NCBI GenBank assembly: GCA_020348445.1
Contig: CP070751.1
Span: forward strand, 1,204,823-1,223,202
Length of the DNA: 18,380 nucleotides
Direction: 5' to 3'
DNA from: Thermoplasmata archaeon
GTDB taxonomy: Archaea; Thermoplasmatota; Thermoplasmata; GCA-020350865
Part shown: positions 418 through 16,800 of the stretch, one piece after another
How the letters are laid out: each line of letters opens with the position of its first letter
Position numbering within the stretch: position 1 is the first letter of the stretch
Translations under genes and position numbers: made by a program
Notes under the pieces: generated by a model
What the model saw: only the letters and a program-made list of their open reading frames with translations
What the model was told of the DNA's origin: nothing
Databases searched by the model: none

Positions 418-3048
418 TCAATTCCCTATGAGGACCATGATATCACCCACTGTCAGGGTGTCCATTTTTCTACCATGGACTGAATAGGCCCTCTCGATGT
501 CCACAAATTCGCCGGTAATAGGTATTATCTCCCCACTTTTGAGGGTAATTTGATATCCCTCACCCTCCATGGCAAAAGAGACTTCTTGGGCATTGGCATT
601 TTTCAGAATATCAGCTATTTCACCGCTTTTTTCCTTGAATTTGGGGCCCAATTTCGCGAAATTCGGCTTTACGACCACAGGTTTTTCTTCAATGTCGATT
701 TTATCCACGACTTTAAGTTCTTTAATTCTGATCGTGCTTACAATGTCCTTTTGGATTTCTGAAAACAGCCCTTTTCTATCTCCTGCTGCAATCTCAACAA
801 GAGCTACTTTGGAATTCAGAGGCAAACCCTTTTCTGATTTCCAATTTCGAAGTGCTGCAGTGATATCCTTAGCAAGTTCGCCCTTAACAATGGCATCCTC
901 ATCCTCCAAAACAGGATCCGGCCAGCCTGATAGGTGTAGGCTTCTTTTACCGTCTAAATCCTTGAAATAGATATGATAAACCTCCTCTGTAATATGAGGC
1001 AGGAAGGTGGCGAACATCTTGGCCATCCCCAATCCTATGGTGAAGAGGGTGTATTGCGCTCCTTCATCCTTTTTATCATATATCCTATACTTCACAAGCT
1101 CGATGTAGTGATCAGCAAGCTCATGCCATAAGAAATTCTCCATAGCCCTCATTGCCCTGTCGAATTGATATTCGTCCAAATGGGTAGTGACCTCGGAAAG
1201 AACCTTTGAATATCTTGAGAGGATCCACTTGTCAATTGTGCTGAGACTCGATCTGTCAAATTCCTTCTTGCCCTCAATTGCCTTGCCTATGAATGACTCT
1301 AAATTCCAGAGCTTGGTTGTCAATCTCACTCCACGTTTTATGTCCCTCATCCTAAAAGGATTGTCCATTCCAAGGGCGCAGGTTGCGGCATAGTAGCGCA
1401 TGGCATCAGAGCCGTACTCATCGAGAATCTCAATTGGGTCCACTGCATTGCCCTTGGAGGCGTGCATGGGTGTGCCGTCCTCTGCAAGGATATAGGCCCC
1501 GATCATGATATCGTCCCAGGGCTTTTGGTCCACAAGAAGATGCTCCCTTATTATAGTGTAAAATGCCCAGGTCCTGATGATGTCCTGGGCCTGGGGTCTA
1601 AGGGACATGGGGTACAGCTTCTTGAACATGTTCTCGTCCCTTTTCCAGAAGGTGTTGAAAAGTGGGGATATACTGGAATCCATCCAGGTGTCGAACACAT
1701 CCTCGCATCCCTTTAATTCCCCACCGCACTTTGGGCAGGAATCAACTGGAGGGGGCGTTATTGTGGGATCAATATAGCACTGCTCCTCCTTGGCCACAAC
1801 GATTCCATCACATTTTGTGCATTCCCAGAGTGGAATCGGGGTGGCAAAATACCGCTGCCTGGAAATCACCCAATCCCAGGTTAAGGAATTTACCCAGTCC
1901 TGAAGACGGATTTTCATGAACTCAGGGAACCATTTGACTTCATCGGCAATCCTGAGTACGTCCTTTTTAAAATCCAGAAGCTTCAAGAACCACTGGGGAA
2001 CCTGTAAGAACTCGATTGGTGTCTTGCATCTCCAGCAGGAACCCACACTCTGGTCAAGCTCCTCCTGTTTTATCAGAAGGTCCTGCTCTTTCATGTCGTT
2101 TATGATGGCCTCCTTGGCATCTGCAATGCTCATGCCCTTATATTTTCCTGCTGCTTCTGTCATCTGGCCGTACTCATCAATACCCTTTTCGATTGCCAGG
2201 TTATAGCGGAAAATCCATTCAAGATCGTCCTTGTCACCTATTGAGCATATCATCACTATGCCTGTTCCGAATTCTGAAAGAACTTTATCGTCTTCCACAA
2301 CTTCAACTGCCCTGTTATACACAGGAGTTAAGAGCATCTTCCCGGCAAGTTCTCCTGCTCTGTCGTCCCTGGGATTTATTGCTACCAACTGACATGTGCA
2401 GAGTAGCTCGGGCCTTGTGGTAGCTATTATGACATCCTCGTCCCTATCACTGATTTTGAACTTGATATAGTTCAATTTAGTCTTTCTGTCCTGATACTCA
2501 ACCTCGGCATCAGCCAAGGCTGTCATGCATCTTGGACACCAATTCACAGGGTGCTCGCCCTTGTAGATCAGGCCCTTGTTAAAGAGCTCGATAAAGGAAA
2601 TTTGGGTGAGCCTGCGGTAGTGCTCGGCATCTGTCTGATAATAGATACTGGGATCCATGCTCTCCCCAAGGATCTTGAACTGCCTTGTCATCTCAGCGAT
2701 GTTGGCATTGGCAAATTCCCTGCAGAGTTTGATAAATTCCTGTCTGTCTATGTCCTTTCTCGTGATACCCAATTTTCTTTCCACCCTTTCCTCAATGGGT
2801 ATACCGTTGGTATCAAAACACAAGGGAAAGAACACATTGTACCCGCGCAGCCTTTTGTATCGTGCTGCAAAATCTATATGAGTATAATGCACGGCATGGC
2901 CAACATGCAAACCACCAGAGGCGTATCTGGGTGGATTGTCAACACTGTAAATTGGCTTATCGGACTCAGGATCGAACCTGAATAACTCGTTCTCGTCCCA
3001 GTAATCCTGCCATTTCTTCTCGATTTCCTTTTGATTTAAATTGGGCAT
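418..3048 (-). CDS. valS: Valine--tRNA ligase (class Ia), archaeal type, 876 aa
   Basis: HIGH motif HVGH (2896..2907) within DNPPRYASGGLHVGH; editing-domain motifs TTRPELL and GTGIVMIC; DWVISRQRYFATPIP; DVFDTWMDSS; QAQDIIRTWAFY; Zn-knuckle CxxC pairs; degenerate KMSKS (PMHASKGN); C-terminal anticodon-binding helices. Confidence 0.96.
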   Translation of the reverse strand: MPNLNQKEIEKKWQDYWDENELFRFDPESDKPIYSVDNPPRYASGGLHVGHAVHYTHIDFAARYKRLRGYNVFFPLCFDTNGIPIEERVERKLGITRKDIDRQEFIKLCREFANANIAEMTRQFKILGESMDPSIYYQTDAEHYRRLTQISFIELFNKGLIYKGEHPVNWCPRCMTALADAEVEYQDRKTKLNYIKFKISDRDEDVIIATTRPELLCTCQLVAINPRDDRAGELAGKMLLTPVYNRAVEVVEDDKVLSEFGTGIVMICSIGDKDDLEWIFRYNLAIEKGIDEYGQMTEAAGKYKGMSIADAKEAIINDMKEQDLLIKQEELDQSVGSCWRCKTPIEFLQVPQWFLKLLDFKKDVLRIADEVKWFPEFMKIRLQDWVNSLTWDWVISRQRYFATPIPLWECTKCDGIVVAKEEQCYIDPTITPPPVDSCPKCGGELKGCEDVFDTWMDSSISPLFNTFWKRDENMFKKLYPMSLRPQAQDIIRTWAFYTIIREHLLVDQKPWDDIMIGAYILAEDGTPMHASKGNAVDPIEILDEYGSDAMRYYAATCALGMDNPFRMRDIKRGVRLTTKLWNLESFIGKAIEGKKEFDRSSLSTIDKWILSRYSKVLSEVTTHLDEYQFDRAMRAMENFLWHELADHYIELVKYRIYDKKDEGAQYTLFTIGLGMAKMFATFLPHITEEVYHIYFKDLDGKRSLHLSGWPDPVLEDEDAIVKGELAKDITAALRNWKSEKGLPLNSKVALVEIAAGDRKGLFSEIQKDIVSTIRIKELKVVDKIDIEEKPVVVKPNFAKLGPKFKEKSGEIADILKNANAQEVSFAMEGEGYQITLKSGEIIPITGEFVDIERAYSVHGRKMDTLTVGDIMVLIGN

Positions 3049-3070
3049 GTGCCATTGGGAAACACTTGGT

Positions 3071-3079
3071 TAAATAAAA
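3071..3079 (-). promoter_or_regulatory. TATA-box candidate for valS (near-leaderless transcript)
   Basis: Minus strand TTTTATTTA ends about 23 nt upstream of the ATG at 3048, with no SD in between. Confidence 0.45.
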
Positions 3080-3181
3080 GGTTTTTGCGGTTTTTATCGG
3101 TCTTGTTCCATCTCCAAATTAAAGTTTATCTATTCTTTAATGCATAACTAACTGATTCTTTTCATTAAAACTTTTAGAGAA

Positions 3182-4168
3182 TCATCTGGTCCAAGCTCTG
3201 AATTTAAACTCCGAACCTTTCTCAATAAGAGATCCCAAGAAATATCCTGCGATGACAAGATACAGTAAACCTAAGACGCCAATCACTCCAATTATATCGA
3301 TAATAAGCAGCGGGCCCAAAATCCATGTTAGGGTCATATCAAGGATCATGCTCTTTACCCAATCACTTCTTCTGCGCATTCTAAATAGATTCCTTATCAG
3401 ATATCCCTGGGTGGGAATTCCGAATATCAAAAACAATATGAAATAAATTGGAGATACAAGATGAAATAGAAGGGGCAATAGGTAAATACCGTAAAATATG
3501 AACTTCAGGCACAATGCATAAAGAATAAGGGGATCCTTTAACTTTAATTTCTTACCAAGAGTGTAATTCAATCTGCTGGCCATAGATGGTATATTCAACA
3601 TTCTATCTGTATCCACATCCTTCATCTCATTCTGCCACTGATTAAATACCAAAGCCAACAATATACTGATAAAAACTATCCAGGATATGGGTGTGGGATG
3701 TCCAACGGCAAAGACCCCGAAGAACGAATAAAGTGCATATCCAAACGGAAATGTGATTTCGAAAGCTATGGGAACGTATTTTGCTTTGAAGCTGTATAAG
3801 GCTACAACAGCATATGAAATCACGAATACCAAGGCTGCTTTGGTTGGGAAAAAATACACTATTAGAAATAGGTTGAAAAATAGGCCAAAGAGGACAAATG
3901 CATAAGCCTCTATGGTACTAATGGCTCCTTTAACAAGAGGTTTTCCTGATAATCCCGGGACCTTGGAATCCAACTTCTTATCGCAGATTTCATTTAACGC
4001 GGCACCTGAGGAATGCGAGAAGAAGCCGATGACGATCAATAATATAATATCCCGGGGGGGAACATTTCCGCAGGCCGTATATGCACCCAAAATCGAAACT
4101 GCAGCAGTTGTGGAGGCACCCTGAATCCTCCCTAAGCCCATGTAATATCTGAATTTGTCAAATGTCAT
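3182..4168 (-). CDS. UbiA-family prenyltransferase 1 (integral membrane, 328 aa)
   Basis: Two Asp-rich motifs, NEICDKKLD (3968..3994, followed by KPLVKGAIS) and NEMKDVDTD; many hydrophobic segments; SD-like GGCGGAG 8 nt upstream of the ATG. Confidence 0.88.
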   Translation of the reverse strand: MTFDKFRYYMGLGRIQGASTTAAVSILGAYTACGNVPPRDIILLIVIGFFSHSSGAALNEICDKKLDSKVPGLSGKPLVKGAISTIEAYAFVLFGLFFNLFLIVYFFPTKAALVFVISYAVVALYSFKAKYVPIAFEITFPFGYALYSFFGVFAVGHPTPISWIVFISILLALVFNQWQNEMKDVDTDRMLNIPSMASRLNYTLGKKLKLKDPLILYALCLKFIFYGIYLLPLLFHLVSPIYFILFLIFGIPTQGYLIRNLFRMRRRSDWVKSMILDMTLTWILGPLLIIDIIGVIGVLGLLYLVIAGYFLGSLIEKGSEFKFRAWTR

Positions 4169-4224
4169 TATGTATTCTCCGCCATTTTTCTCTTACCCAT
4201 TACTTCCAACCTTCGATCACCAAT

Positions 4225-4247
4225 AACTATAAAGAACTATAAATATA
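4225..4247. promoter_or_regulatory. Divergent promoter region with tandem AACTATAAA repeats / TATA boxes
   Basis: AACTATAAA at 4225-4233 and 4235-4243 (10-bp period), running into TATAAATATA. It lies in the 97-bp gap between divergent UbiA 1 and the radical SAM gene. Confidence 0.5.
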
Positions 4248-4265
4248 TCCAAATAATTTGATACA

Positions 4266-5756
4266 TTGGCAATCGAAATAATTCTTTTAGAGCAATTGCC
4301 CTTGGCTGAGGGGACAAACCTGTTTGACAGGATGACCACAAATCCGATAGGTCCAGGGCTTTTACAACTGGAAGCTGTTTTGGAAAAGGAAGGTTACAAG
4401 GTAGGACTCGGCAGTGTAAAGGATATAAAAGATATTGATAAGATTCTCACACGCCAACCAAATACAGGTATAGTTGGAATTTCCTGCATCACGGCAAACT
4501 GCCAAGACGCATATTATGCTTTGGATCACATAAAAAAGAATTACGAATTGCCCACTATAATTGGGGGCTGTCACGTTACTTTTCTTCCCGAGGAGGCTTT
4601 GAATCATGCCGATGTTGTTTTCGTGGGTGAAACAGAAATTTCCCTCCCCGAATTCCTAGGAGAAGTAGAGCAAAAGGGCTGGCCAAAGAAAAAAATGGAT
4701 AGAATCCGAGGTGCGATTATCGATGATAACGGAGTCAGAATAAATCCCAGGTACATGGTTAAGGACTTGGACTCACTTCCCCACATAAAATACACTTACA
4801 CAGTTGTCAAAACAACATCCACTCCATTGGATGGATTTCTTGCCAAGGTATCAGCAAAAGCACGACTCTCCACCTCCAGAGGATGCCCCTTTGCCTGCGA
4901 GTTCTGCCAGAGCTCAAGAAAGGAAGGCATGAAATGGAGGGCGAACAGTGCAGAGTATGTTGTGGACTCCATGGAACTTTTCGAAGAGAAAGGTGCCAAC
5001 ATGATACAGTTTGTGGACGATAATTTCTCCTTGGATGCAAAACGCATTGAAAAGATATGCGACTTGATCGAAAAAAGAGGATTGGATGTATCCTGGGCAT
5101 TTTTCGGGAGATTGGATTGGATTGCAACCCATCCAAATCTCTTTCACAGGATGGTTGAGAATGGATGTATGTCCATATTTGTTGGGATAGAGAGCGGATC
5201 TCAGAAAGTGCTTGACGGCATGAAGAAAAAGCTGACAGTGGACCAAATAACAAAAGGTTTTGAGATAATCCATTCCGAAAAAGCAGTTTTCAGTACAGGA
5301 TCCATGATAATTGGTGCTTATGATGATACAGAGAAGACAATTGATCATTCAATTGATTTTGTAAAGAAGCTGAACCCTCACTTTGCGCTATTTACAATGA
5401 TGACTCCCTACCCTGGGGCGCCATTATATGATAGATTGGTAAAGGAGAATAGAATAAACACATACGACTGGAGCAAATACACTGGTGAAAATCTGGTATT
5501 CGATCACCCATTTATTGATAATGACTTGGTTCAGTACAAACTCTACGAGGTGTACAAGGAATATTATTCAAGGGAGGAATGGCAGGATAAAATCAATAGT
5601 TGGGATGTTCCTTCAGATATGTTACCTTCGCTTCCCCAATTCATTAAAAATTGGCTTTTCAGGCGGGTGATCTCCAACGTTAAGAAGAAAGGTTTCAAAT
5701 ACTGGTCCAAGGTTTTAGAGGATTACGAGGTAGAAATGGGACGAGATGTGTCTTAA
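4266..5756 (+). CDS. Cobalamin-binding radical SAM enzyme (class B-like), 496 aa, TTG start
   Basis: N-terminal B12-binding domain pattern (IEIILLE...PGLLQLEAVL...GISCIT...IIGGCHVTFLPEEAL...DVVFVGETE); CxxxCxxC = CPFACEFC at 4884..4907; FVDDNF; GIESGSQKVLDGMKK; TPYPGAPLY. The TTG start is supported because it keeps the first beta-strand of the B12 domain. Confidence 0.92.
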   Translation: MAIEIILLEQLPLAEGTNLFDRMTTNPIGPGLLQLEAVLEKEGYKVGLGSVKDIKDIDKILTRQPNTGIVGISCITANCQDAYYALDHIKKNYELPTIIGGCHVTFLPEEALNHADVVFVGETEISLPEFLGEVEQKGWPKKKMDRIRGAIIDDNGVRINPRYMVKDLDSLPHIKYTYTVVKTTSTPLDGFLAKVSAKARLSTSRGCPFACEFCQSSRKEGMKWRANSAEYVVDSMELFEEKGANMIQFVDDNFSLDAKRIEKICDLIEKRGLDVSWAFFGRLDWIATHPNLFHRMVENGCMSIFVGIESGSQKVLDGMKKKLTVDQITKGFEIIHSEKAVFSTGSMIIGAYDDTEKTIDHSIDFVKKLNPHFALFTMMTPYPGAPLYDRLVKENRINTYDWSKYTGENLVFDHPFIDNDLVQYKLYEVYKEYYSREEWQDKINSWDVPSDMLPSLPQFIKNWLFRRVISNVKKKGFKYWSKVLEDYEVEMGRDVS

Positions 5757-5768
5757 GTTATTTTTGTA

Positions 5769-6794
5769 TTATTCCATGTATTTCCCAAATTTCAGTTCTG
5801 CCCCATGCTGCAAAAAGGATCCAACAAAGTATCCCAAGACAATATATAAAATGAGATACAAGATTATGGCCCATCCAACGATGTCAATGATCAATATCGG
5901 CCCTAGGATCACCGTGGACTCTACATCCAAAACCAATATTTTCACCCATCTTCCCCGAGTATGCTTCCCGAAGAGCAGGTATATCACGTAAGCCTGGGTT
6001 GGAAGGCCCACCACCAAAAATATAAAGAAGTAAAGAGGCAAGCCAAATAAGGATAATGGGTATATATCTGTTGGAGGAACAAGATCAAATAATATGGGTA
6101 AAAAATAGACAATAAGAAATGCAAATTTAAGGGTCAGAGCATAGATTATCAAGGGATTGGTTAGGGTAAGTTTCTGACCAAACCTGTACTTTAAAAGATA
6201 AGGCACACTCTTTATCCCAAATCTCGAATCTGTATCAACATCTTTCATCTCGTTAATCCATTGATCAAAAACAGTAGCTATGAAAATTACAGCTATCATT
6301 ACATAGCTTATTGATGTGGGTTGCCCAATTGCATAAAGCCCATATATTGTATAAAACACACCATTTAAAGGGACCATGACCTCGCAGATTCCTGGTGTGC
6401 GTTTCAGTTTTAAATTGTATATTGCGATGACTCCTCCCGACAATAAAAAGAATATCGTAGCCATCAAAATCGGATAGAGGTAGATAGTAAGAACTGTACT
6501 TAGCACGAGCATTGCCATTGACAAAGAAAGAGCTGTTTTAGGGGAAATGGTACCTGTAACCAAGGGTTTGTCTTTCAGGGTGTCAACAGTTACATCTAGC
6601 TTCATATCGCAGTATTCATGAAATGAGGCTCCGGCCATATGCGCAAAAAATGCGATTACAGTGAAATAGATCCAGTCGATAGGCTCAACAGATCCAGTTG
6701 ATGTGTATGCACCGATCAGTGCAACTCCTGCAGTAAGGGATACACCCTGAACCCTGCCTAGGTCCATATATGCTCGGAATTTCTCCAATGCCAT
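5769..6794 (-). CDS. UbiA-family prenyltransferase 2 (paralog of 3182..4168)
   Basis: Motifs HEYCDMKLD (6594..6620, followed by KPLVTGTIS) and NEMKDVDTD. Gap-free alignment with UbiA 1 gives 46/84 identities over the N-terminus (hand count). Start placed at ATG 6794 by alignment to the paralog; alternatives are ATG 6797 and GTG 6806. Confidence 0.88.
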   Translation of the reverse strand: MALEKFRAYMDLGRVQGVSLTAGVALIGAYTSTGSVEPIDWIYFTVIAFFAHMAGASFHEYCDMKLDVTVDTLKDKPLVTGTISPKTALSLSMAMLVLSTVLTIYLYPILMATIFFLLSGGVIAIYNLKLKRTPGICEVMVPLNGVFYTIYGLYAIGQPTSISYVMIAVIFIATVFDQWINEMKDVDTDSRFGIKSVPYLLKYRFGQKLTLTNPLIIYALTLKFAFLIVYFLPILFDLVPPTDIYPLSLFGLPLYFFIFLVVGLPTQAYVIYLLFGKHTRGRWVKILVLDVESTVILGPILIIDIVGWAIILYLILYIVLGYFVGSFLQHGAELKFGKYME

Positions 6795-7031
6795 CATATA
6801 ATCCACGCCATTTAGACAGATAGCAATTTTTCAATACTAAAACAAGATAATAACCCTGGGTCATAAACCTGTTGCTTACCATGTAAAGTAATCCTATATG
6901 AAATAACAATTATCATCAATTTACATGTTAACGGCCAATACTATATATTGAAATGCTATTTATACTAGATATAGAACTGTAATTTACACTGAGGAATCCA
7001 TAGTCTTTAGGCTCTTGAAGGAGAAAAGCCC

Positions 7032-7949
7032 ATGGGAGATTGGGGACAACGAATTATCGGGCATATAAAATTAACAAGACCCCCTGCAGTAATCTGGTTG
7101 GACTTTATTCCGGCTGTCACATTTTTTGTGGTAATTACCCATCATCTCCCATCATATTTCTATCTTCTTTTCATCCTTGGGATAATGTGCTTTGATATGA
7201 CCTCAAGCACTGTAAATGACATAGCCGATTTTGAAAGCGACAGAAGAAGCATCGAGCCCAATAGAAAACACAGGCCCATTGTTATGGGTGTCATCTCAAA
7301 GAAGGCGGCATCTTACAGGACCATATCACTCTTTGTTGTCGGTTGCATAATATTCGTATACCTGTCCTTTTACAGTTCCCCTTTGATTTTCCTGTTTGCA
7401 TTGTTACTTGGACTTTTGGGATTACAGTACTCCCTTCCACCATTGGAAATGGGAGCTCGTCCCATGCTTTCTACAATTTTTTGGCCTTTTTTATGGATTA
7501 TCTACTATTTAGCGCTCATATCATATATTGGATTGGAGAAGGTGGAATCAGGTTTACTATTTCTTGGATCAGTAATATTATTTATGGGACTTGCAGAGCC
7601 TCTTGCAAAGGACATCCGGGATGTCGACAACGACAAAAGAGGAGGAAAGATAACAACAGTTGTGCGCTTTGGAGTTCCAAGATCTGCAATAGCGAGTTTC
7701 ACTCTTTCTATAATGGGAAGCTTGATGTGGATTTATTCTTTGTATGTCATTTCAACTAACAATTACTACATTCTTTTAATTCTGTTGATGGTCTTTGTTC
7801 TTTGGAATGGATACTGTCTAGCTCTTACGAGGCGTTTAATTTCTTCTTATCAGAAAAAGGATGGAAGGAGTATGCATCTAGGATACATCCTGACTTTCAC
7901 TGTGGCCAATTTTCTTACCATCGCCTTCTTTTTAGCCAATAAACTATAA
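7032..7949 (+). CDS. UbiA-family prenyltransferase 3 (DGGGP-synthase/ChlG-like motif pattern), 305 aa
   Basis: NDIADFESD...RPIVMGVIS and KDIRDVDNDKRGGKITTVVRFG; multiple TM segments; SD GAAGGAG upstream. Subfamily not resolved by eye. Confidence 0.87.
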   Translation: MGDWGQRIIGHIKLTRPPAVIWLDFIPAVTFFVVITHHLPSYFYLLFILGIMCFDMTSSTVNDIADFESDRRSIEPNRKHRPIVMGVISKKAASYRTISLFVVGCIIFVYLSFYSSPLIFLFALLLGLLGLQYSLPPLEMGARPMLSTIFWPFLWIIYYLALISYIGLEKVESGLLFLGSVILFMGLAEPLAKDIRDVDNDKRGGKITTVVRFGVPRSAIASFTLSIMGSLMWIYSLYVISTNNYYILLILLMVFVLWNGYCLALTRRLISSYQKKDGRSMHLGYILTFTVANFLTIAFFLANKL

Positions 7950-8652: not shown

Positions 8653-9750
8653 ATGCTGGAAAAAATTGACTTACGAGAGTTATCAGAGATAAGCGATACA
8701 AGACCATCTTTTGTTAGTGTCTACTTGAATGCAATGGATGACCGCACTGAAAAATTCCTTAACAAAAGAGAAAGGGATTGCCTCAATGCATTGAAACAGG
8801 AGAGGGAATTAAAAGAGATATTTAAAAAGAACATGGAAAAGGTCCGGGAATTTCTAAAAACCGGGAAGACTGGAGGAGCAAAATCATATGCCATATTTTC
8901 ATCCTCACCTAAGAACTTCTTTTATGGCTACGAGCTGCCTTTAGAGGTGGAAAACCAGCTCATAGTTGATACCTCACCCTACATTCGACCCTTGGCCATG
9001 TTGGAGGAGGAATGGGAATCCATGGCAATAGTTCTTCTTGACCACAGCAATGCAAGACTCTACATGATATCTTCTGCAATGATCCAGGATACAAAGAAGA
9101 TGCACAAGGACATAATGAACAAGCACAAAAAAGGCGGCTGGTCCCAGATGAGATTTCAAAGGCTCAGAAAGGGCGCAATAGATCATTTCTTCAAGGAGGT
9201 CTCAGAGTACCTGGAGGGCTTTTTGGAGAAGGAGAATGTGAGAAGGATCATCTTGGCAGGTCCAGGTTCTGCAAAGAAGGAGTTTGCAGAGTACCTACCT
9301 GAACCGACCCAAAAAAAGGTCATAAGTATAATCGATGAGGATATAGATGTTCCAGAGGGGCAGCTTCTTTCAGATTCATTTGAAAATTTCTTTAAGAAAG
9401 AAAGGGAAGAGGAAAATGAGATGGTGGCAAATCTAAGGGCCGAGATTCTAAAAGGCGGCCTCGTGGCCTATGGAGTAGACGATACTTTGGCTGCCGTAAC
9501 AGAGGGAAGGGCAGAGCTGCTTCTCATAAACATGGGAAAAAGGGCAGTTGGTTGGAAATGCGAGTTATGCAAGATATTTAAACCCGGTTCTGCAGAGACA
9601 TGCGAAAGCTGTGGAAAGCCAGTATTTAATGTAGATCTTGTGGAGGAGTTGGTTGAGGCAGCAAAGAGCCTGGGAACCACCCTGGAGTTCGTAAAGGACA
9701 ACGAATTTTTAGATGAGCTGGGAGGAGTGGCTGCGTTTTTGAGGTTCTAG
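8653..9750 (+). CDS. Non-canonical aRF1/eRF1-superfamily protein (baeRF/VLRF1-like), 365 aa
   Basis: RNase H-like middle domain with HKKGGWSQMRFQRLR loop; ILAGP motif; C-domain GLVAYGVDDT...AELLL; Zn-knuckle CELC...CESC; terminal GGVAAFLRF. No NIKS or YxCxxxF motif. SD GGAGG upstream. Confidence 0.85.
   Translation: MLEKIDLRELSEISDTRPSFVSVYLNAMDDRTEKFLNKRERDCLNALKQERELKEIFKKNMEKVREFLKTGKTGGAKSYAIFSSSPKNFFYGYELPLEVENQLIVDTSPYIRPLAMLEEEWESMAIVLLDHSNARLYMISSAMIQDTKKMHKDIMNKHKKGGWSQMRFQRLRKGAIDHFFKEVSEYLEGFLEKENVRRIILAGPGSAKKEFAEYLPEPTQKKVISIIDEDIDVPEGQLLSDSFENFFKKEREEENEMVANLRAEILKGGLVAYGVDDTLAAVTEGRAELLLINMGKRAVGWKCELCKIFKPGSAETCESCGKPVFNVDLVEELVEAAKSLGTTLEFVKDNEFLDELGGVAAFLRF
9706..9750 (+). 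repeat. Direct repeat copy 1 (attL-like), the 3' end of the release-factor gene
   Basis: TTTTTAGATGAGCTGGGAGGAGTGGCTGCGTTTTTGAGGTTCTAG; the 25-bp core 9714-9738 is identical to 10838-10862. Confidence 0.92.
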
Positions 9751-9770
9751 TTAATAGGACCAATAAATTA

Positions 9771-9825
9771 TTAGGCCCTACCCTTTTTCTTTAAAGCGAA
9801 ACATTTATAATAAAGTAGGGCCTAA
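9771..9825. promoter_or_regulatory. fic promoter (BRE/TATA 9793-9811) flanked by two TAGG-N-CCTA palindromes forming an 11-bp inverted repeat
   Basis: TTAGGCCCTAC (9771-9781) and GTAGGGCCTAA (9815-9825) are exact reverse complements. AAAGCGAAACATTTATAAT lies between them, with the TATA about 23 nt upstream of ATG 9834. Confidence 0.7.
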
Positions 9826-9833
9826 CTACTATT

Positions 9834-10811
9834 ATGGTGTATCATAAGATAAAGAAAATCAAAGGGAGAACCTACAATTACCTAATCGAAAGCTTCAAGT
9901 TCAGGGGGAAGGTTCACCAGATCCAAAAGTACCTGGGAACCAAAAAAATGAAGAGGATTGAAATAGAAAATGCCAAGGAAAAACATAGAGATTGGTTCCG
10001 TTATGAGACTATCAAGAAGAAAGCCTCCTTTTCAGCCTTGGAATATAAGTCTGCTATCCTTTCATCCAAACAACTTACACAACTCGAGACCATCCGTTAT
10101 ACCTTTCGTAAATTTAAAAGAAACTTGCATCCCAATGAAATAGAGAGACTTGAGAGGGATTTTGATATCGGTTATGTTTATTCTACCACTTCAACTGAAG
10201 GGAACACATGCACGCTCTCTGAGGTTACACGAATTTTGGAAAATCATTTAACTCCTAAAGGAAGATCCCTAAGAGAAATATATGAAATTAGGAACTTTGA
10301 GGAGGTACTGAGATTTCGGAAGGGATATAAAGGTGACCTCTCAAAGAAATTCATACTAAAACTTCATGAGCTTGTTATGAAAGATATCGATCTATATACC
10401 CTTGGTAACTTTCGGAGAATAGAAGTGGCTATATTAGGAAGCGATACCACTCCTGTGCCTGCTATCTTTGTGGAGGAAGAGATTGACAAACTCCTTAAAT
10501 GGTATCACAAGAACAAGGGTAAAATTCATCCATTGGAACTTGCATGCGAATTTCATGTGCGATTCGAAGCAATTCATCCTTTCACCGATGGTAATGGAAG
10601 GGTGGGAAGGGAGATTTTTAATTTCATGATAACCAGATCAGGTTTCCCTTCATTCAATTTCAATGTAAAAAAGAGGGATGAATATCTTGATGGCCTTGAA
10701 ATGGGACAGAAGGGAGATTTGAATCCTATCATGGACTACATCATGGATAATTTTATAAAACAGATGAAGGTAAGACTCAAAAATAATCCTTTGATGAAAG
10801 TCTTTGATTAA
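9834..10811 (+). CDS. Fic-domain protein (325 aa) with N-terminal basic domain and internal inhibitory motif
   Basis: Canonical Fic motif HPFTDGNGRVGR at 10575..10610; (S/T)xxxE(G/N) inhibitory motif TTSTEGN at 10185..10205; basic N-terminus KIKKIKGRTYNYLIESFKFRGKVHQIQKYLG. Confidence 0.93.
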   Translation: MVYHKIKKIKGRTYNYLIESFKFRGKVHQIQKYLGTKKMKRIEIENAKEKHRDWFRYETIKKKASFSALEYKSAILSSKQLTQLETIRYTFRKFKRNLHPNEIERLERDFDIGYVYSTTSTEGNTCTLSEVTRILENHLTPKGRSLREIYEIRNFEEVLRFRKGYKGDLSKKFILKLHELVMKDIDLYTLGNFRRIEVAILGSDTTPVPAIFVEEEIDKLLKWYHKNKGKIHPLELACEFHVRFEAIHPFTDGNGRVGREIFNFMITRSGFPSFNFNVKKRDEYLDGLEMGQKGDLNPIMDYIMDNFIKQMKVRLKNNPLMKVFD

Positions 10812-10830
10812 AGCAAATAGATTTGAAACT

Positions 10831-10874
10831 TTTTTAGTGAGCTGGGAGGAGTGGCTGCGTTTATGAGGTATTAG
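10831..10874 (+). repeat. Direct repeat copy 2 (attR-like), orphan 3' end of a release-factor gene
   Basis: TTTTTAG-TGAGCTGGGAGGAGTGGCTGCGTTTATGAGGTATTAG matches copy 1 at 41/45 positions (1 indel, 3 substitutions) and translates as ELGGVAAFMRY*. Confidence 0.92.
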
Positions 10875-10881
10875 AGACCTC

Positions 10882-13800
10882 TTAGAGCTCCCTGTTCTCT
10901 GTATCCTCGATTTCTTCTGTTTTACCTTCAGGCTCATCATCGAGTTCTGTAGGGCCTTCATCATCAAGCTCCTCGGTTACTATTTCTTCTTCAGGTCTTA
11001 GGTCCTCGTCATAGACTTCCTCTTCTATGACCTCCTCTTCTAGCGGTTCCTCTATTTCCTCGTAACCTTCTTCTCCCACCAGTTCCTCTTCGACCTCTTC
11101 TTCACCATAGCTTTCTTCGATTTCCTCTATTTCTTCAGGAGCTTCTTCTCCTGCAACTTCCTCTTCTCCTTCAGCAAGGCCTTCTTCCACTTCTGGGATC
11201 TCCTCTGCTTCCTTTTTCTTTCTGGTGAGCAGGAAGAGCAATATGACGATGATTATGATCACCACTATGATAATGAAGGGCAGGACATTCATCTCCTCTT
11301 CATCCTCTTTTTCAGCAGTTCCTATGGTAACAGAATAATCATCACTTATGAAGGGATTTCCTGCAGTATCTGTGACCTCGAAGTAGTAATGCAGAGTCCC
11401 GCTTTCTTCGGGGGTGATTGAGCCTGAATACGTACCTTCCGATTCTTCAAGGGTCAGGGGCTTTTTCTTGGACTCATCATCACCGAACCAGTACCATACC
11501 TTAACCTCTGAGACACCTATGTTATCTGAGACATCGATTTGGAAGCGGAATTCTTTCCCCTTCTCACCGGATGTATCGGAAGCTGGATTGGATATGCTTC
11601 CGGGATCGTCATCAGTAACAGTAATGACGGTTGATGTTGCCGTATTCGGGTTGTTGGCACTGTCATTGAACACAACAAAGTATGTGATGCTTGCCAGGCT
11701 GTCTGAGGGTATGTGGATGGTGTAGTTGTAGTAATCGCCGTCCTTGACCAAATCATATAGTGTGCCATCGATGCTGATTTTGTAGTAAGTTATACCGACA
11801 TTATCTGTTGCGTGGAGGCTTACAAGCAGGGAGTCGCCAGTTGTTCCTGCATTTGGATGTAGGACCCAGTCGAACTCGGGCTGCTCGCTATCAGTGGGAA
11901 GGGTCACAGTTATCACGGTGTCATCAGTTGTTATAGGATTACCAGCAGCGTCTTTGAATGTAACGTCGTATGTGATGCTGGCGGAACTTCCAGGTGGAAT
12001 ATTGATCGTATAGTTGAAGTAGTCCCCATCTTTGATCATGTCATAAGTTGTTCCATCGATATTGATTTTATAGTAAGTAACTCCGATATTGTCTAATGCC
12101 GTGAGGCTTACCAGAACCGATTCTCCTGCCGTGCCGGTTGAGGGATGCAGGACCCAGGTGTATGAGGGAGAATCATCGTCCGTGACAGTTATTGTGGTGT
12201 CATCGGTTATGTTATCGTTGCCCCACCAATCACTGAATGTTATATTGTAGGTTATACTGGCCGTGCTGTCACTTGGAATATTGAGGGTGTAATTGTAATA
12301 GTCACCATCCCGGCTCATTTCGTGAAGAGCTCCATCTATAATGATCCTATAATATGTGATGCCAGTATTATCTGTAGCCAGGAGACTTATAAGCACGTGT
12401 TCGCCCGTTGTACCTGTGGTAGGCCGTAAGACCCAGGTATAGGTGGGTTTTTCATCATCTGTGCTGGTTATTGTTAATACGGTGTCCTCAGTGGTAATGG
12501 AGTTACCCTCATTATCTTTGAATGTGACATTATACGGTATATCCTCCGTACTTTCAATCGGAATATTGAAGGTATAATTATAGTAATCACCATCCTTTAC
12601 CATATCGAAGGTTGTTCCATTGATGGTGATGGTGTAATTCGTGACTCCTATGTTATCTGTCCCTATCAGGCTAACAGTAAATGTACCTCCTGCCAAACCG
12701 GTAGTGGGTTGTAAAACCCAAGTGTAGGTGGGCTCGTCGTTATCCGTGACCGTGATTGTGGTACCAGGTATTGTATTTGGGTTGTTCGCGCTATCATTGA
12801 GAATGATAGAATAGATGATGTCTGTAATGCTGTCAGGCGGAATATCAATGGTAAAGTTGTAGTAATCACCATCCTTATCAAGATCATAGAGCATGCCATC
12901 GACATCGATCTTATAATAGGTAATCCCGATATTGTCTGTTGCCTGGATGCTCACCAAAACGAATTCACCGGTAGTTCCACCCATTGGCTGAGAGACCCAT
13001 ACAAATGTTGGTGCATCGTTATCTGTGATAGGCACGGTTGTTGGTGTGGTGTTCACCCAGAATCCACCTGAATCAACTGCGGTGAAGTAATATTCTATTA
13101 ATCCGACATAGTCAGAAAGCATGTCTTCGTAGAGCCAGTACGGGCCTGTTCCATTCATTGTTAGATTCTTGTACATTACCACGCCTTCAGGGCGGTAATT
13201 GACATGGACGCTGACGATTCCCATGTTGTCTGATGCATTGATCTCGAAATAAAAGGGATCACCTGTTGTGCCTGAGGTATCAGAATTGTCTGAAAATATG
13301 GTGGGAGGAATATTGTCGATAAGTGTGATAATGACGAGTTGTGTATGGTCCATTGTAGGATTGGGAGTCGCAACTCCAAAGGCTCCTGATTTGGTGGCAT
13401 TTGCAGTATAGTCATTGAAGTTCTTGATGATCCCGGTAATATTCTCCTGATATTCCATGCAGATAATGAAGAAAGCCTGTCCGTCTGAGTTAGCGGTTGA
13501 ATTGAATATCTCGGTTTTATCCACATCGGCAACTGCAACTATGGCTTCGGGAACAGGTAGGGCGACCTGACTCTGCACTAGGACGTTCATGAACCATGCA
13601 ACTTCAAGAAGTGAATCGTAGTCCTCGAAGAACACACTTGCATTATTAAATGTGGAATTAATCATGAAGAGGTACGAGGCTGAGTAAAGACTGATGTCCA
13701 AAACTGCACAGTTAGCAATCGAACCATTGAGCATATGGTGTACAACAGAATTGTTGGAATATATTCCGTAATCGAAAGTATCTATGGTTAATTGGGTGGC

Positions 13801-16800
13801 AAAAACATCGGTTATATTGAAGAGTAACAGGCCTTTGGAGCCTGCAGATCCCCCGATGATATCGCATTCGTTTATATGGAACACAGGCTGTTGGACAGTT
13901 GGGTCTGGATTCTGCCATTCGAAGAGCATGCCAAAGAGTCCCCCGTCGAATGTGTTTCCTTGGATGATGACATCCCCCACCAGTAAGGTCGGGGTGCCTG
14001 TCACACCCCTTGGTGTATCAACAGTTGTATAGTTGAAGGCACTGAATGCAGAATCAACCAAGTTATCAACAATCATCATGCCAGGGAAAACCACTGTAGA
14101 GTTGTCCATTATGTTAATGCAGCGGTCCAAAACGATGTCGATTCCGGTTATACTCGCGGTTATCGTATTTTGTTTTAAATGGATATCTTCAATGGACAAC
14201 CTTGAATCATTATGGATATTGTAGGCGTTGTCAATGATGTAGCATTTGATCCCTGTTCCGTTTGTGCAGGTGATGTTGTTCTTCTCTATGACAACCGGAC
14301 CCATATTAGCCTGAGATTCATTCCATAAGTTGTAACCGAAATATTCCATTCCAAAATAGATCCCATAGTCAAATGCGGTGATGGTATTGTTCGCGATAGA
14401 TATACCTGTGGCGTTCACTGATGCGAAATCCATGAGCTCTTCGGCGACATCGTATCCATAGAAATAGATGCCAGTACCTTGGGGGACAGTGATAATGTTG
14501 CTTTCCAACCTTATCTCACCAACCTCAACTACTGCCCGGCATTCGGATAAGCCTAAAACATCGAGATAGAATCCGATTCCCTCGTAATAGAAGTATATGC
14601 CATAACTTCCATTGGAAAAAATGTTGTTATTTGACACTATGTAATCTCCAAAATGTGCCTGGGATTCGTCAGAGACATAATTCCCCGAATAATAGGGGCC
14701 AGTATAGATCCCGTAATGCGTGGGGGACCAGGATGTGATATTGTTGAACATGATGTAACAGCTGCCCACCTCGAAGTAAGAATAGTCGTATATGTGACTA
14801 CCGAAGTTCTCCCACCACCATGACTCTATGCCACTCCCTCCTGTTGAGTTCAGTGTGTTGTGCATTATCTCGTTCTTGCCAAAATGTGCACTTGAATTGC
14901 CATACATGTATGAACCAAAATACGTTGGCTGAAAGTATATTCCATTATTACCGGCGGTGATTGTGTTGCCTATGAAGCTGAAGTCGCCAATGGTGAAGGT
15001 TGCACTATCGTACATGTAATATGCCCAGTTGTATGGTTGGAAATCGATTCCATCTGCCAAAGAACCAACAATGATCTCATTGCCGTTGAATTCGAAGTAC
15101 CCTAGCTCTGCATGGCTCTGGTCGTACATCTGGTATCCCACATATCGGGGTTGATCGAAACTGATACCGTCGGAACCAAGATCCGTGGTATTTATTACGT
15201 TGTTGTTTATCAAGAAGTTCCCAAAGAACACCATGGAATCATTGTGCAGATCTGCCGCTAAGTCATGGAAGGACGCAAAGCGTATCCCCCAATCCTTTGA
15301 TGTGATATTGTTACGGAGGAACTCGAAATCCCCGAAGTGAGCACTGGAGCCGTTGTACATCTGATAACCCAACCAGTAGGCTGAAACCTCAAAACCAAGC
15401 CCGTTCACACAGTATATGATGTTGTCATTCATTTGAACATGTCCCATATTGAAAATGGAGCCGTCATACATGCTCGAACCTAGCTTATCCAAATATAATT
15501 CGATACCAGCATAATAACCTCCATTGAAAAGTAACACATCATTATCGTTCAGCTGGATACTACCCATGGTGACGGATGAATTACCCAAGGTATAATAACC
15601 GATCTCGCCTATTTCAATGCGCATCCCATCATTGTAAGCTTCAATGATGGTGTTATCATTGAATAGGAAGTTACCATATGAGGCCGTGTTTTCGCCATAC
15701 AAATAATTACCCAAATTGTAGATATCACAGAATATTCCTTCATCCCCATCGGTGGTGTTTACTGTATTTCTGCAGACCTCTATGTTCCCGTTCATTGTGA
15801 ACGTTGCGGTGTCATACATATTTGCACCATAGTTGGATATCCAGTTTATATGAATACCATTTGCATGGGTTCCGGTTCCAAAGATTACTGTTACAGTATT
15901 GTCGTTAACCAGTATGGGCCCCACAATGGCCTGTGATTCATTATACATCTCGTAACCGACATATTGGGTTAGGAAGAGAATTCCGTAACTGTCCACAGAA
16001 GCAGGATCCTGACCGGAAGTTATCGTATTGTTCAATACAATTATACTTCCCATTTCGAATGTGGACATATCATGCATATCGTAACCTGCGTACTCAAACT
16101 GGCAATAGATACCCTGATTTTGTGATTCGATGATGTTGTTTGAAACCGATAAATCCCCAAAGGTTGCGCTTGCGGTTCCTGTCATAGTGTAGGCCAATTC
16201 GTAGGCATTGATATAGATACCGTGAGAATCATCACAGGTGATGTTATTATCATTTAATTGGATGTGGCCCAAATTAACTGAGGAGTTCCCAAACATCTCG
16301 TAACCGTTCTCATAGAAGAGGAAATAGATACCTTTATAAAAGCCACTGGGAATGGATCCGGCGATTATCTCGTTGCGGTTGACCTCGATATTTCCAAAGG
16401 TCGCTAATGAATTGTTATGGACATCAGAGCCCCAGTATAGGATGGCATTGATGTTAATACCGTGACCTGTGGAATTAACTATATTGTCACTGAACAGGAA
16501 ATTACCAAAGTGGACTTCTGCATTATCATACACTCTCCAGGCCCATGAATCCATGTATATATAGATACCATAAAAACCAATTGTGCTTATGCTATTCCCT
16601 GCAATTTCAAAGTCTCCCATAGTAAATACTGATTGGCCGTAGATTTGTTTCCCCATATCATACCAGTCGCCAAAGTCTATACCATAGCCATTCGAGTTGT
16701 TTATTATGTTGTCATTTAGGAAAAAGTGTCCAAATGTAACTTGATTATCTCCCCTGAGATAATTGCCCCAATACCCCATGTTACTCATTATGATGCCCCC

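Follow-up and report, generated by a model that had tools for sequence, protein, structure and literature searches.

The eRF1-like gene at the centre of an archaeal contig has its 3' end duplicated on the far side of a fic gene, and we give about an even chance to the reading that this repeat is the scar of additive recombination with DNA from a related lineage, and not the attachment (att) site of a dedicated mobile element. The structure is most likely of a known kind, an additive-insertion recombination scar, met here at a hypervariable locus of an uncultured archaeon. The window, by which we mean the whole stretch of 18,380 nt analysed (Thermoplasmata archaeon, GenBank assembly GCA_020348445.1, CP070751.1, positions 1,204,823 to 1,223,202 of the forward strand), is one complete contig of 18.4 kb. 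It belongs to a metagenome-assembled genome (MAG), G000, of 5,156,303 bases, in which 354 contigs are concatenated in order of size with runs of 100 N, and which is 81.66% complete with 3.77% contamination. Because the contigs are N-joined, neighbours across the window's ends in G000 are not real, and linkage stops at the 5' end of a giant repeat protein gene. The comparison set consists of four genomes (G000, G001, G002 and G003) and the metagenome contigs L065 and L066; G001 (CP070739.1), the closest relative of G000, is also N-joined.

Our repeat search confirmed what an earlier note on this DNA had described, namely that the last 45 nt of the eRF1-like gene (called RF below) recur 1,124 bp downstream. 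The two stretches (9706-9750 and 10830-10874) form a direct repeat, identical without gaps at 39 of 45 positions, and contain a perfect 25-mer core, TGAGCTGGGAGGAGTGGCTGCGTTT (Table 1). The gene-end tails, FLRF* in copy 1 and FMRY* in copy 2, are likewise as the note had given them, and so is the distance of 7 nt from the end of copy 2 to the stop codon of the convergent giant gene (10882-10884). With up to three mismatches allowed, the core has exactly two copies in the assembly; by our estimate, exact 25-mers less than 20 kb apart would be expected by chance about 1e-4 times in a genome of this size. A genome-wide scan gave 93 short direct repeats that stand isolated, the RF-tail pair included, and the majority belong to other repeat families. 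The nearest relative of copy 2 is copy 1 (34 of 37 nt), followed by the RF tails of G002 (32 of 37), and its gene-derived part comprises the last 37 nt (10838-10874) or slightly less. Copy 2 shares the frame of fic and is not translated with it, because TAA, TAG and TGA separate them (window 10809-10874). Between the two copies fic is the sole open reading frame (ORF), and the ORF list together with Pfam revealed no recombinase or integrase in the window; the note was right that none is carried.

Related genomes show which of the two junctions is the older. In G002, G003, L065 and L066, a leftward ValRS gene, rightward GATase and RF genes and a leftward giant gene follow one another with no fic between RF and the giant gene. 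These are the empty sites that the note had suggested looking for, and because RF adjoins the giant gene, free of fic, in all four, copy 2 marks the older junction: it retains the older RF end, still joined to the giant gene, as had been supposed. In G002 and G003 the promoter of the leftward giant gene is followed by fic and DeoC, both rightward, with fic orthologues of 73% and 79% amino acid identity. G001 carries RF, fic and DeoC, all rightward, on one contig, without the giant gene and without copy 2, and in G000 rightward RF, fic and copy 2 meet the leftward giant gene. A fic orthologue is present in all three close relatives (G001, G002 and G003), each time upstream of DeoC; fic is a resident of this neighbourhood and not a free-standing cassette, so that the minimal mobile cassette of the note finds no support here. 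By blastn the fic block extends over 9771-10838 against G003 and 9793-10833 against G002, and the right-hand limit of the unit shared with G003 therefore coincides with the start of the copy 2 core. Adjacency of RF and fic was not seen in the more distant RF orthologues L012-L016. DeoC of G000 is represented by its C-terminal half only, from aa 140, at the start of a contig; the N-terminal half of DeoC, the 5' end of the giant gene and a second fic were not found in the 81.66%-complete MAG. In a tree of giant genes, the G000 gene is the outgroup to a pair made up of the second giant gene of G002 (giantB) and the gene next to fic in G003.

At the right joint, the native 3' flank of fic (G003 CTTTTAGTAA, G001 TTTTCTGGTGA; wider flank, G003 GAAATCTTTTAGTAA, G001 GAAATTTTCTGGTGA) meets the RF pre-core GAATTTTTAGATGA at TTTTAG/TGA, a microhomology of 9-10 nt. 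What had been taken for a 1-nt deletion 5' of the core in copy 2 is in fact this junction, because the preceding TTTTTTAG is fic's own 3' flank (CTTTTAG in G003, TTTTCTGG in G001). At the left joint, homology with the fic locus of G003 begins at 9771, and tail plus spacer (9739-9774) are identical in G000 and G001 at 31 of 36 positions. At its 3' end this spacer is similar to the one between RF' and a giant gene in G002, AATTTATTAG, which runs into the stop codon of the giant gene; over about 10 nt only, the left joint would fit the loss of a giant gene at a TTAG microhomology. Furthermore, the fic-DeoC spacer of G001 is colinear with that of G003. In G001 fic has never left DeoC, and its RF-fic joint is therefore not an attL produced by integration of a circle there; with an attL-like joint lacking its attR and a native fic-DeoC spacer in G001, the claim that both ends stem from the same exchange falls. 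An ancient RF-tail remnant behind fic might be expected in all relatives; the fic-DeoC spacer of G003 has TTTGAGGTA at the matching place, but the local alignments attain no better than p ~0.03 before correction for 24 tests.

The fic gene is a discrete block, younger than its flanks. Between G000 and G001 its synonymous divergence (dS, NG86) is 0.50, as against 1.31 for ValRS, 3.29 for GATase, 1.97 for RF, 1.98 for ADH and 1.19 for the C-terminal half of DeoC. The fraction of identical codons at identical residues is 0.76 in fic versus 0.57 when the flanks are pooled (Fisher p = 1.4e-9). Third-position identity, followed in windows of 30 codons, rises from ~0.4 over the first half of RF to ~0.6 over the second, stands at 0.87-0.90 across the initial 90 codons of fic and is back at ~0.6 at the fic 3' end, a profile that resembles a recombination tract with its centre at the RF-fic joint. 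The GC content at third codon positions is also lower in fic than in its neighbours (0.42 versus 0.48-0.61 in G001, 0.40 versus 0.46-0.54 in G000). Taken together, the low dS of fic and the identity tract argue that the RF-spacer-fic arrangement was exchanged between the G000 and G001 lineages after their split.

The history that we propose would start from the layout seen in the relatives, with leftward ValRS, rightward GATase and RF and one or more leftward giant genes, and with rightward fic and DeoC on the far side of the latter. In one lineage, the giant gene or genes between RF and fic would have been lost, leaving RF, 20 nt, TTAG and fic, an arrangement whose pure form is that of G001. 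A segment comprising the 3' part of RF, the spacer and fic would then have entered a chromosome of the G000 lineage that still held the RF tail joined to the giant gene. One end would have been settled by homologous recombination in the conserved 3' region of RF, and the other by illegitimate joining at TTTTAG/TGA, which would connect the fic 3' flank to RF sequence just before the core. This could have happened by homology-facilitated illegitimate recombination (HFIR) of a linear fragment or, equivalently, by circularisation of a 1,124-bp fragment at TTTTAG/TGA, which then crossed over once, by homology, within the core. RF would thereby stay intact with a replacement end (LRF*) and fic would be under its own promoter, while the recipient's last 37 nt (MRY*) would persist as a dead remnant, still attached to the giant gene; the identical 25-bp core would be the interval between the two exchange points. 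The enzymes would presumably be those of the host's general recombination and repair machinery, and general recombination explains all features without an integrase. As in HFIR or a single crossover, one end lies in the conserved, homologous RF tail and the other at a microhomology, and the inserted DNA is of more recent and different ancestry than its flanks. Of the note's proposal that a circle crossed over in the core, the final structure is as predicted, with fic and a replacement gene end between the copies; the dedicated att element is the part that we do not retain.

An independent, parallel RF-tail scar is carried by G002. There, rightward RF and a first leftward giant gene (giantA) are followed by a 106-nt RF remnant and then by the 3' end of the second giant gene (L039 11669-11779, G002:C13), and the 5' end of giantB, fic and DeoC sit on another contig. 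The first 74 nt of this remnant match the RF of L065 at 63 of 74 positions (85%) but G002's own RF at only 47 of 74 (64%), whereas its last 37 nt are identical to G002's own RF at 35 of 37. Since the synonymous sites of the flanking genes are all saturated between G002 and L065, the 5' part of the remnant derives from a lineage closer to L065. The remnant meets the giant-gene promoter at a microhomology, GGTGGAGnAGATGG, and high identity extends beyond the RF tail into the 3' ends of the giant genes. In G003 (L072, G003:C257, 1098-1216), two giant genes stand head to tail, and their 119-nt spacer yielded no clear RF remnant. This hypervariable locus, of which the conserved tail of RF forms one edge and which contains giant surface-type genes and fic, has received additions of DNA from other lineages at least two times.

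Several observations weigh against an additive insertion from a related lineage. Both copies in G000 share the G000-specific codons GGA GGA GTG, where other lineages have GGC and then GGC, GGT or GGG, yet they differ at 3 of the 12 nt after the core and their spacers are unrelated; shared synonymous states next to differing tails therefore call for a donor very near to G000 or for a later gene conversion limited to the core. The RF-derived start of copy 2 also falls within ~12 nt of the switch from foreign to own sequence in G002, a coincidence that a defined site would explain more simply than chance; homologous exchange between diverged sequences, for its part, would be expected chiefly where conservation is highest, in ELGGVAAF. 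The donor molecule is a postulated one, and the G000 contig stops inside the giant gene, short of any predicted second fic beside DeoC. Finally, the history is read from four genomes and two contigs only.

The same repeat could have arisen within the G000 lineage by local rearrangement, through tandem duplication of the unit RF tail-giant-promoter-fic and subsequent deletion of the first giant gene. An unequal exchange that involved the RF pre-core TTTTAGATGA and the fic 3' flank TTTTAGTGA would have made the duplication, the deletion would have used the TTAG microhomology, and G001 would be a form collapsed back through fic-fic recombination, a collapse of which its native fic-DeoC spacer is the expected product. 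Microhomology at both joints speaks for such a course, as do the tandem giant genes of G002 and G003, which show that giant genes do become duplicated in tandem here, and the spacer after copy 1, which ends like the G002 RF'-giant spacer with the giant stop codon included. We nevertheless consider it unlikely, since it leaves unexplained that fic has a dS of 0.50 between G000 and G001 where the flanks have 1.2-3.3. Moreover, tails and spacers of both copies should begin identical, yet they are unrelated past the core; an event before the G000-G001 split would need gene conversion to keep the core perfect; and a second fic is predicted, of which the 81.66%-complete MAG yielded none. Still more doubtful is an artefact of assembly or binning, in which two strain variants (RF-fic-DeoC and RF-giant) were merged or a small circle was looped in via the 25-mer. 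What speaks for it is that one contig of 18.4 kb makes up the window, in a MAG that is fragmented (354 contigs, 3.77% contamination), that the joint of fic and copy 2 is seen on this contig only, and that the N-terminal half of DeoC and the 5' end of the giant gene are missing from the bin. However, the RF-fic joint is independently present in G001 (CP070739.1) and a comparable remnant in G002, and as the joint of fic with copy 2 occurs in neither parental arrangement, the reads must contain it. Besides, the k-mers with which the usual assemblers finish are longer than 25 bp. We therefore judge an artefact very improbable.

There is finally the reading closest to that of the note, in which the RF-tail core is a true att site and an integrase-free cargo circle was moved by a recombinase encoded elsewhere. 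Such an element would leave behind what is seen here, namely a perfect core flanked by arms that have diverged, a replacement end of the gene on the attL side and empty sites in relatives, and fic is discrete, younger and lower in GC at third positions. RF-tail repeats bracket cargo in two genomes with the switch point within the same ~12 nt, and the MAG holds another single-ORF insert between perfect 62-nt tRNA-like 3' repeats that is missing in relatives. On the other side stand the core itself, which occurs only twice in G000, at RF tails only in the genus and nowhere in the viral or genome contig collections searched, and the lack of inverted-repeat arms around it in the repeat search, besides the lack of a recombinase in the window. 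No second cargo and no recombinase neighbour of the core, for both of which the note had suggested a search, came to light in G000, the genus or the viral and genome contig collections. G001 combines an attL-like joint without attR with the native linkage of fic and DeoC, the left edge of copy 2 is the native flank of fic joined by microhomology, the identity in G002 passes from the tail into the 3' end of the giant gene as in gene conversion or homologous exchange, viral contigs yielded no relative of fic, and the ends of the resident IS200-type element are unrelated. On balance, we regard a true att site as improbable. In its wider form, this reading would make the last ~25-37 nt of RF a reusable att site throughout the genus, with cargo exchanged between lineages by a recombinase encoded in trans, to which we likewise give little credence; it seems equally improbable that two such cargoes are represented by fic in G000 and by the gene of 7.7 kb for a giant surface protein in G002.

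Table 1. Features of the window and their coordinates (nt, window numbering)
Feature	Position	Strand	Description
eRF1-like paralogue (RF)	8653..9750	+	365 aa, intact; Pfam baeRF_family10, eRF1_2, eRF1_3
Copy 1	9714..9750	+	25-bp core 9714-9738 and 12-nt tail TTGAGGTTCTAG (LRF*)
Left joint	9751..9774	+	20-nt spacer and TTAG, then fic hairpin; common to G001
fic block	9771..10837	+	Also in fic loci of G003 (78% nt) and G002 (72% nt); left context differs there
Inverted repeat GGCCCTAC / GTAGGGCC	9772..9824	+	Surrounds TATA-like box of fic; kept in 4/4 genomes
fic	9834..10811	+	325 aa; Pfam Fic PF02661, E = 1.7e-20
Right joint	10827..10840	+	Microhomology TTTTTTAG-TGA, fic native 3' flank versus RF pre-core TTTTTAGATGA
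Copy 2	10838..10874	+	Non-coding RF-tail remnant; core 10838-10862, then ATGAGGTATTAG (MRY*)
Giant repeat protein gene	10882..18378	-	At least 2,498 aa; convergent; 5' end cut by contig end

All ORFs of the window could be assigned (ValRS, three UbiA, radical SAM, GATase, RF, fic and the giant gene). The target that the note had named a release factor is an eRF1-superfamily paralogue and not a canonical aRF1, judging from its sequence: instead of GGQ it has GGWSQ, at aa 165-169, its zinc knuckle is of the form CxxC...CxxC, a motif scan found both NIKS and YxCxxxF absent, and it reaches 117.6 bits against TIGR03676 (the aRF1 equivalog), under the cut-off of 234.7. A separate aRF1-like gene was found elsewhere in the G000 genome. 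Orthologues of RF are present in G001, G002, G003, L065 and L066, and baeRF branches of the eRF1 superfamily have been described (PMC6514570). The Fic protein has the active-site motif HxFx(D/E)GNGRxxR as HPFTDGNGRVGR at aa 248 and, at aa 118, TTSTEG, which is like (S/T)xxxE(G/N). Its G003 counterpart is three codons longer and reaches the TAG; relatives outside the genus are 31-41% identical, and none was found in viral contigs. The inverted repeat upstream of fic may be an operator or an RNA stem, and its GGCCCTAC/GTAGGGCC arms are altered in G002 and G003, yet mostly still pair. Homologues of the giant gene adjoin RF in G002, G003, L065 and L066; L041, considered as the region upstream of the giant gene, was rejected as a separate contig past a 100-N run. 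Elsewhere in the window, three UbiA prenyltransferase genes and a B12-binding radical SAM gene (3182-7949) split ValRS and GATase in G000 only; the two are directly adjacent, without this block, in G001, G002, G003, L065 and L066, and no direct repeats were found to flank it.

Other inserts and elements reside in the same MAG. At G000:C1:328858-328919, 62 nt from the 3' portion of a tRNA-like gene recur perfectly, as a direct repeat, at +707 nt (L074 ~2859-3630) and bracket a 707-bp insert, which is integrase-free and contains a single ORF of 193 aa with no Pfam hit. The tRNA-like gene has a CAT anticodon region, apparently contains introns and is called by neither ARAGORN nor Rfam; an Rfam scan of the insert gave no matches. 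G001-G004 match the tRNA-like part only, the insert being absent. The MAG also has five Y1 transposase genes and two 100% identical IS200-type units of 661 nt (G000:C1:2860419-2860769 and 3339079-3339429; L083 and L084), which comprise a Y1 transposase and tight terminal hairpins. Mobilisation of fic in trans by an IS200/IS605-type element was considered and rejected: the ends of the 661-nt copies are unlike those of the fic block, and TTAG is not seen at their flanks. Of the subterminal hairpins that IS200/IS605 (HUH Y1) elements would have at both ends, the fic block has only the one upstream of fic. An integron cassette, too, finds no support, as the window has no integrase and the fic 3' end no inverted repeat, although no attC model was applied.

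These results have a bearing beyond the locus. An uncultured archaeon can gain an accessory gene beside a conserved gene without mobile-element machinery and without breaking the conserved gene. The scars left by such recombination mimic att sites, with a perfect core, diverged arms and empty sites, and the prediction of elements from repeats in MAGs therefore needs comparative checks.

With regard to known systems, the structure shares with elements inserted by tyrosine recombinases at the 3' ends of tRNA or protein genes the bracketing direct repeat, the restoration of the target by the incoming arm and the existence of empty sites. It differs from them in that no recombinase lies in or near the insert, binding-arm symmetry is lacking and no further occurrence of the core was found; in addition, the cargo is a long-standing neighbour, whose native flank takes part in the microhomology at one joint. 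Closer parallels come from bacteria, where a circularised fragment that inserts by a single crossover leaves part of the homologous locus in duplicate (PMC3240628), and where HFIR (de Vries & Wackernagel 2002; Prudhomme et al. 2002, both as cited in PMC5361080) has been proposed as the model by which modules are added after the conserved end of a gene (PMC5361080). As in HFIR or Campbell-type insertion, one end is anchored in a conserved gene and the other lies at a microhomology, DNA is added and not swapped, part of the locus is duplicated, and a dedicated recombinase is unnecessary. The differences are that the event took place in an uncultured archaeon and is deduced from comparative anatomy only, and that the duplicated stretch measures 25-37 nt, compared with 109-950 bp in the E. 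coli experiments (PMC3240628). The arrays of orphan 3' ends and immunity genes at type VI secretion system (T6SS) and Rhs loci (PMC5361080) follow the same logic, seen twice here (G000 and G002): the end of a conserved gene repeatedly anchors variable cargo from relatives, and the displaced old end persists downstream. In those arrays the anchor is a toxin gene and the remnants are whole genes; here, an eRF1-like paralogue serves as anchor, a Fic enzyme or giant surface-type protein is the cargo, and the remnants are tens of bases long.

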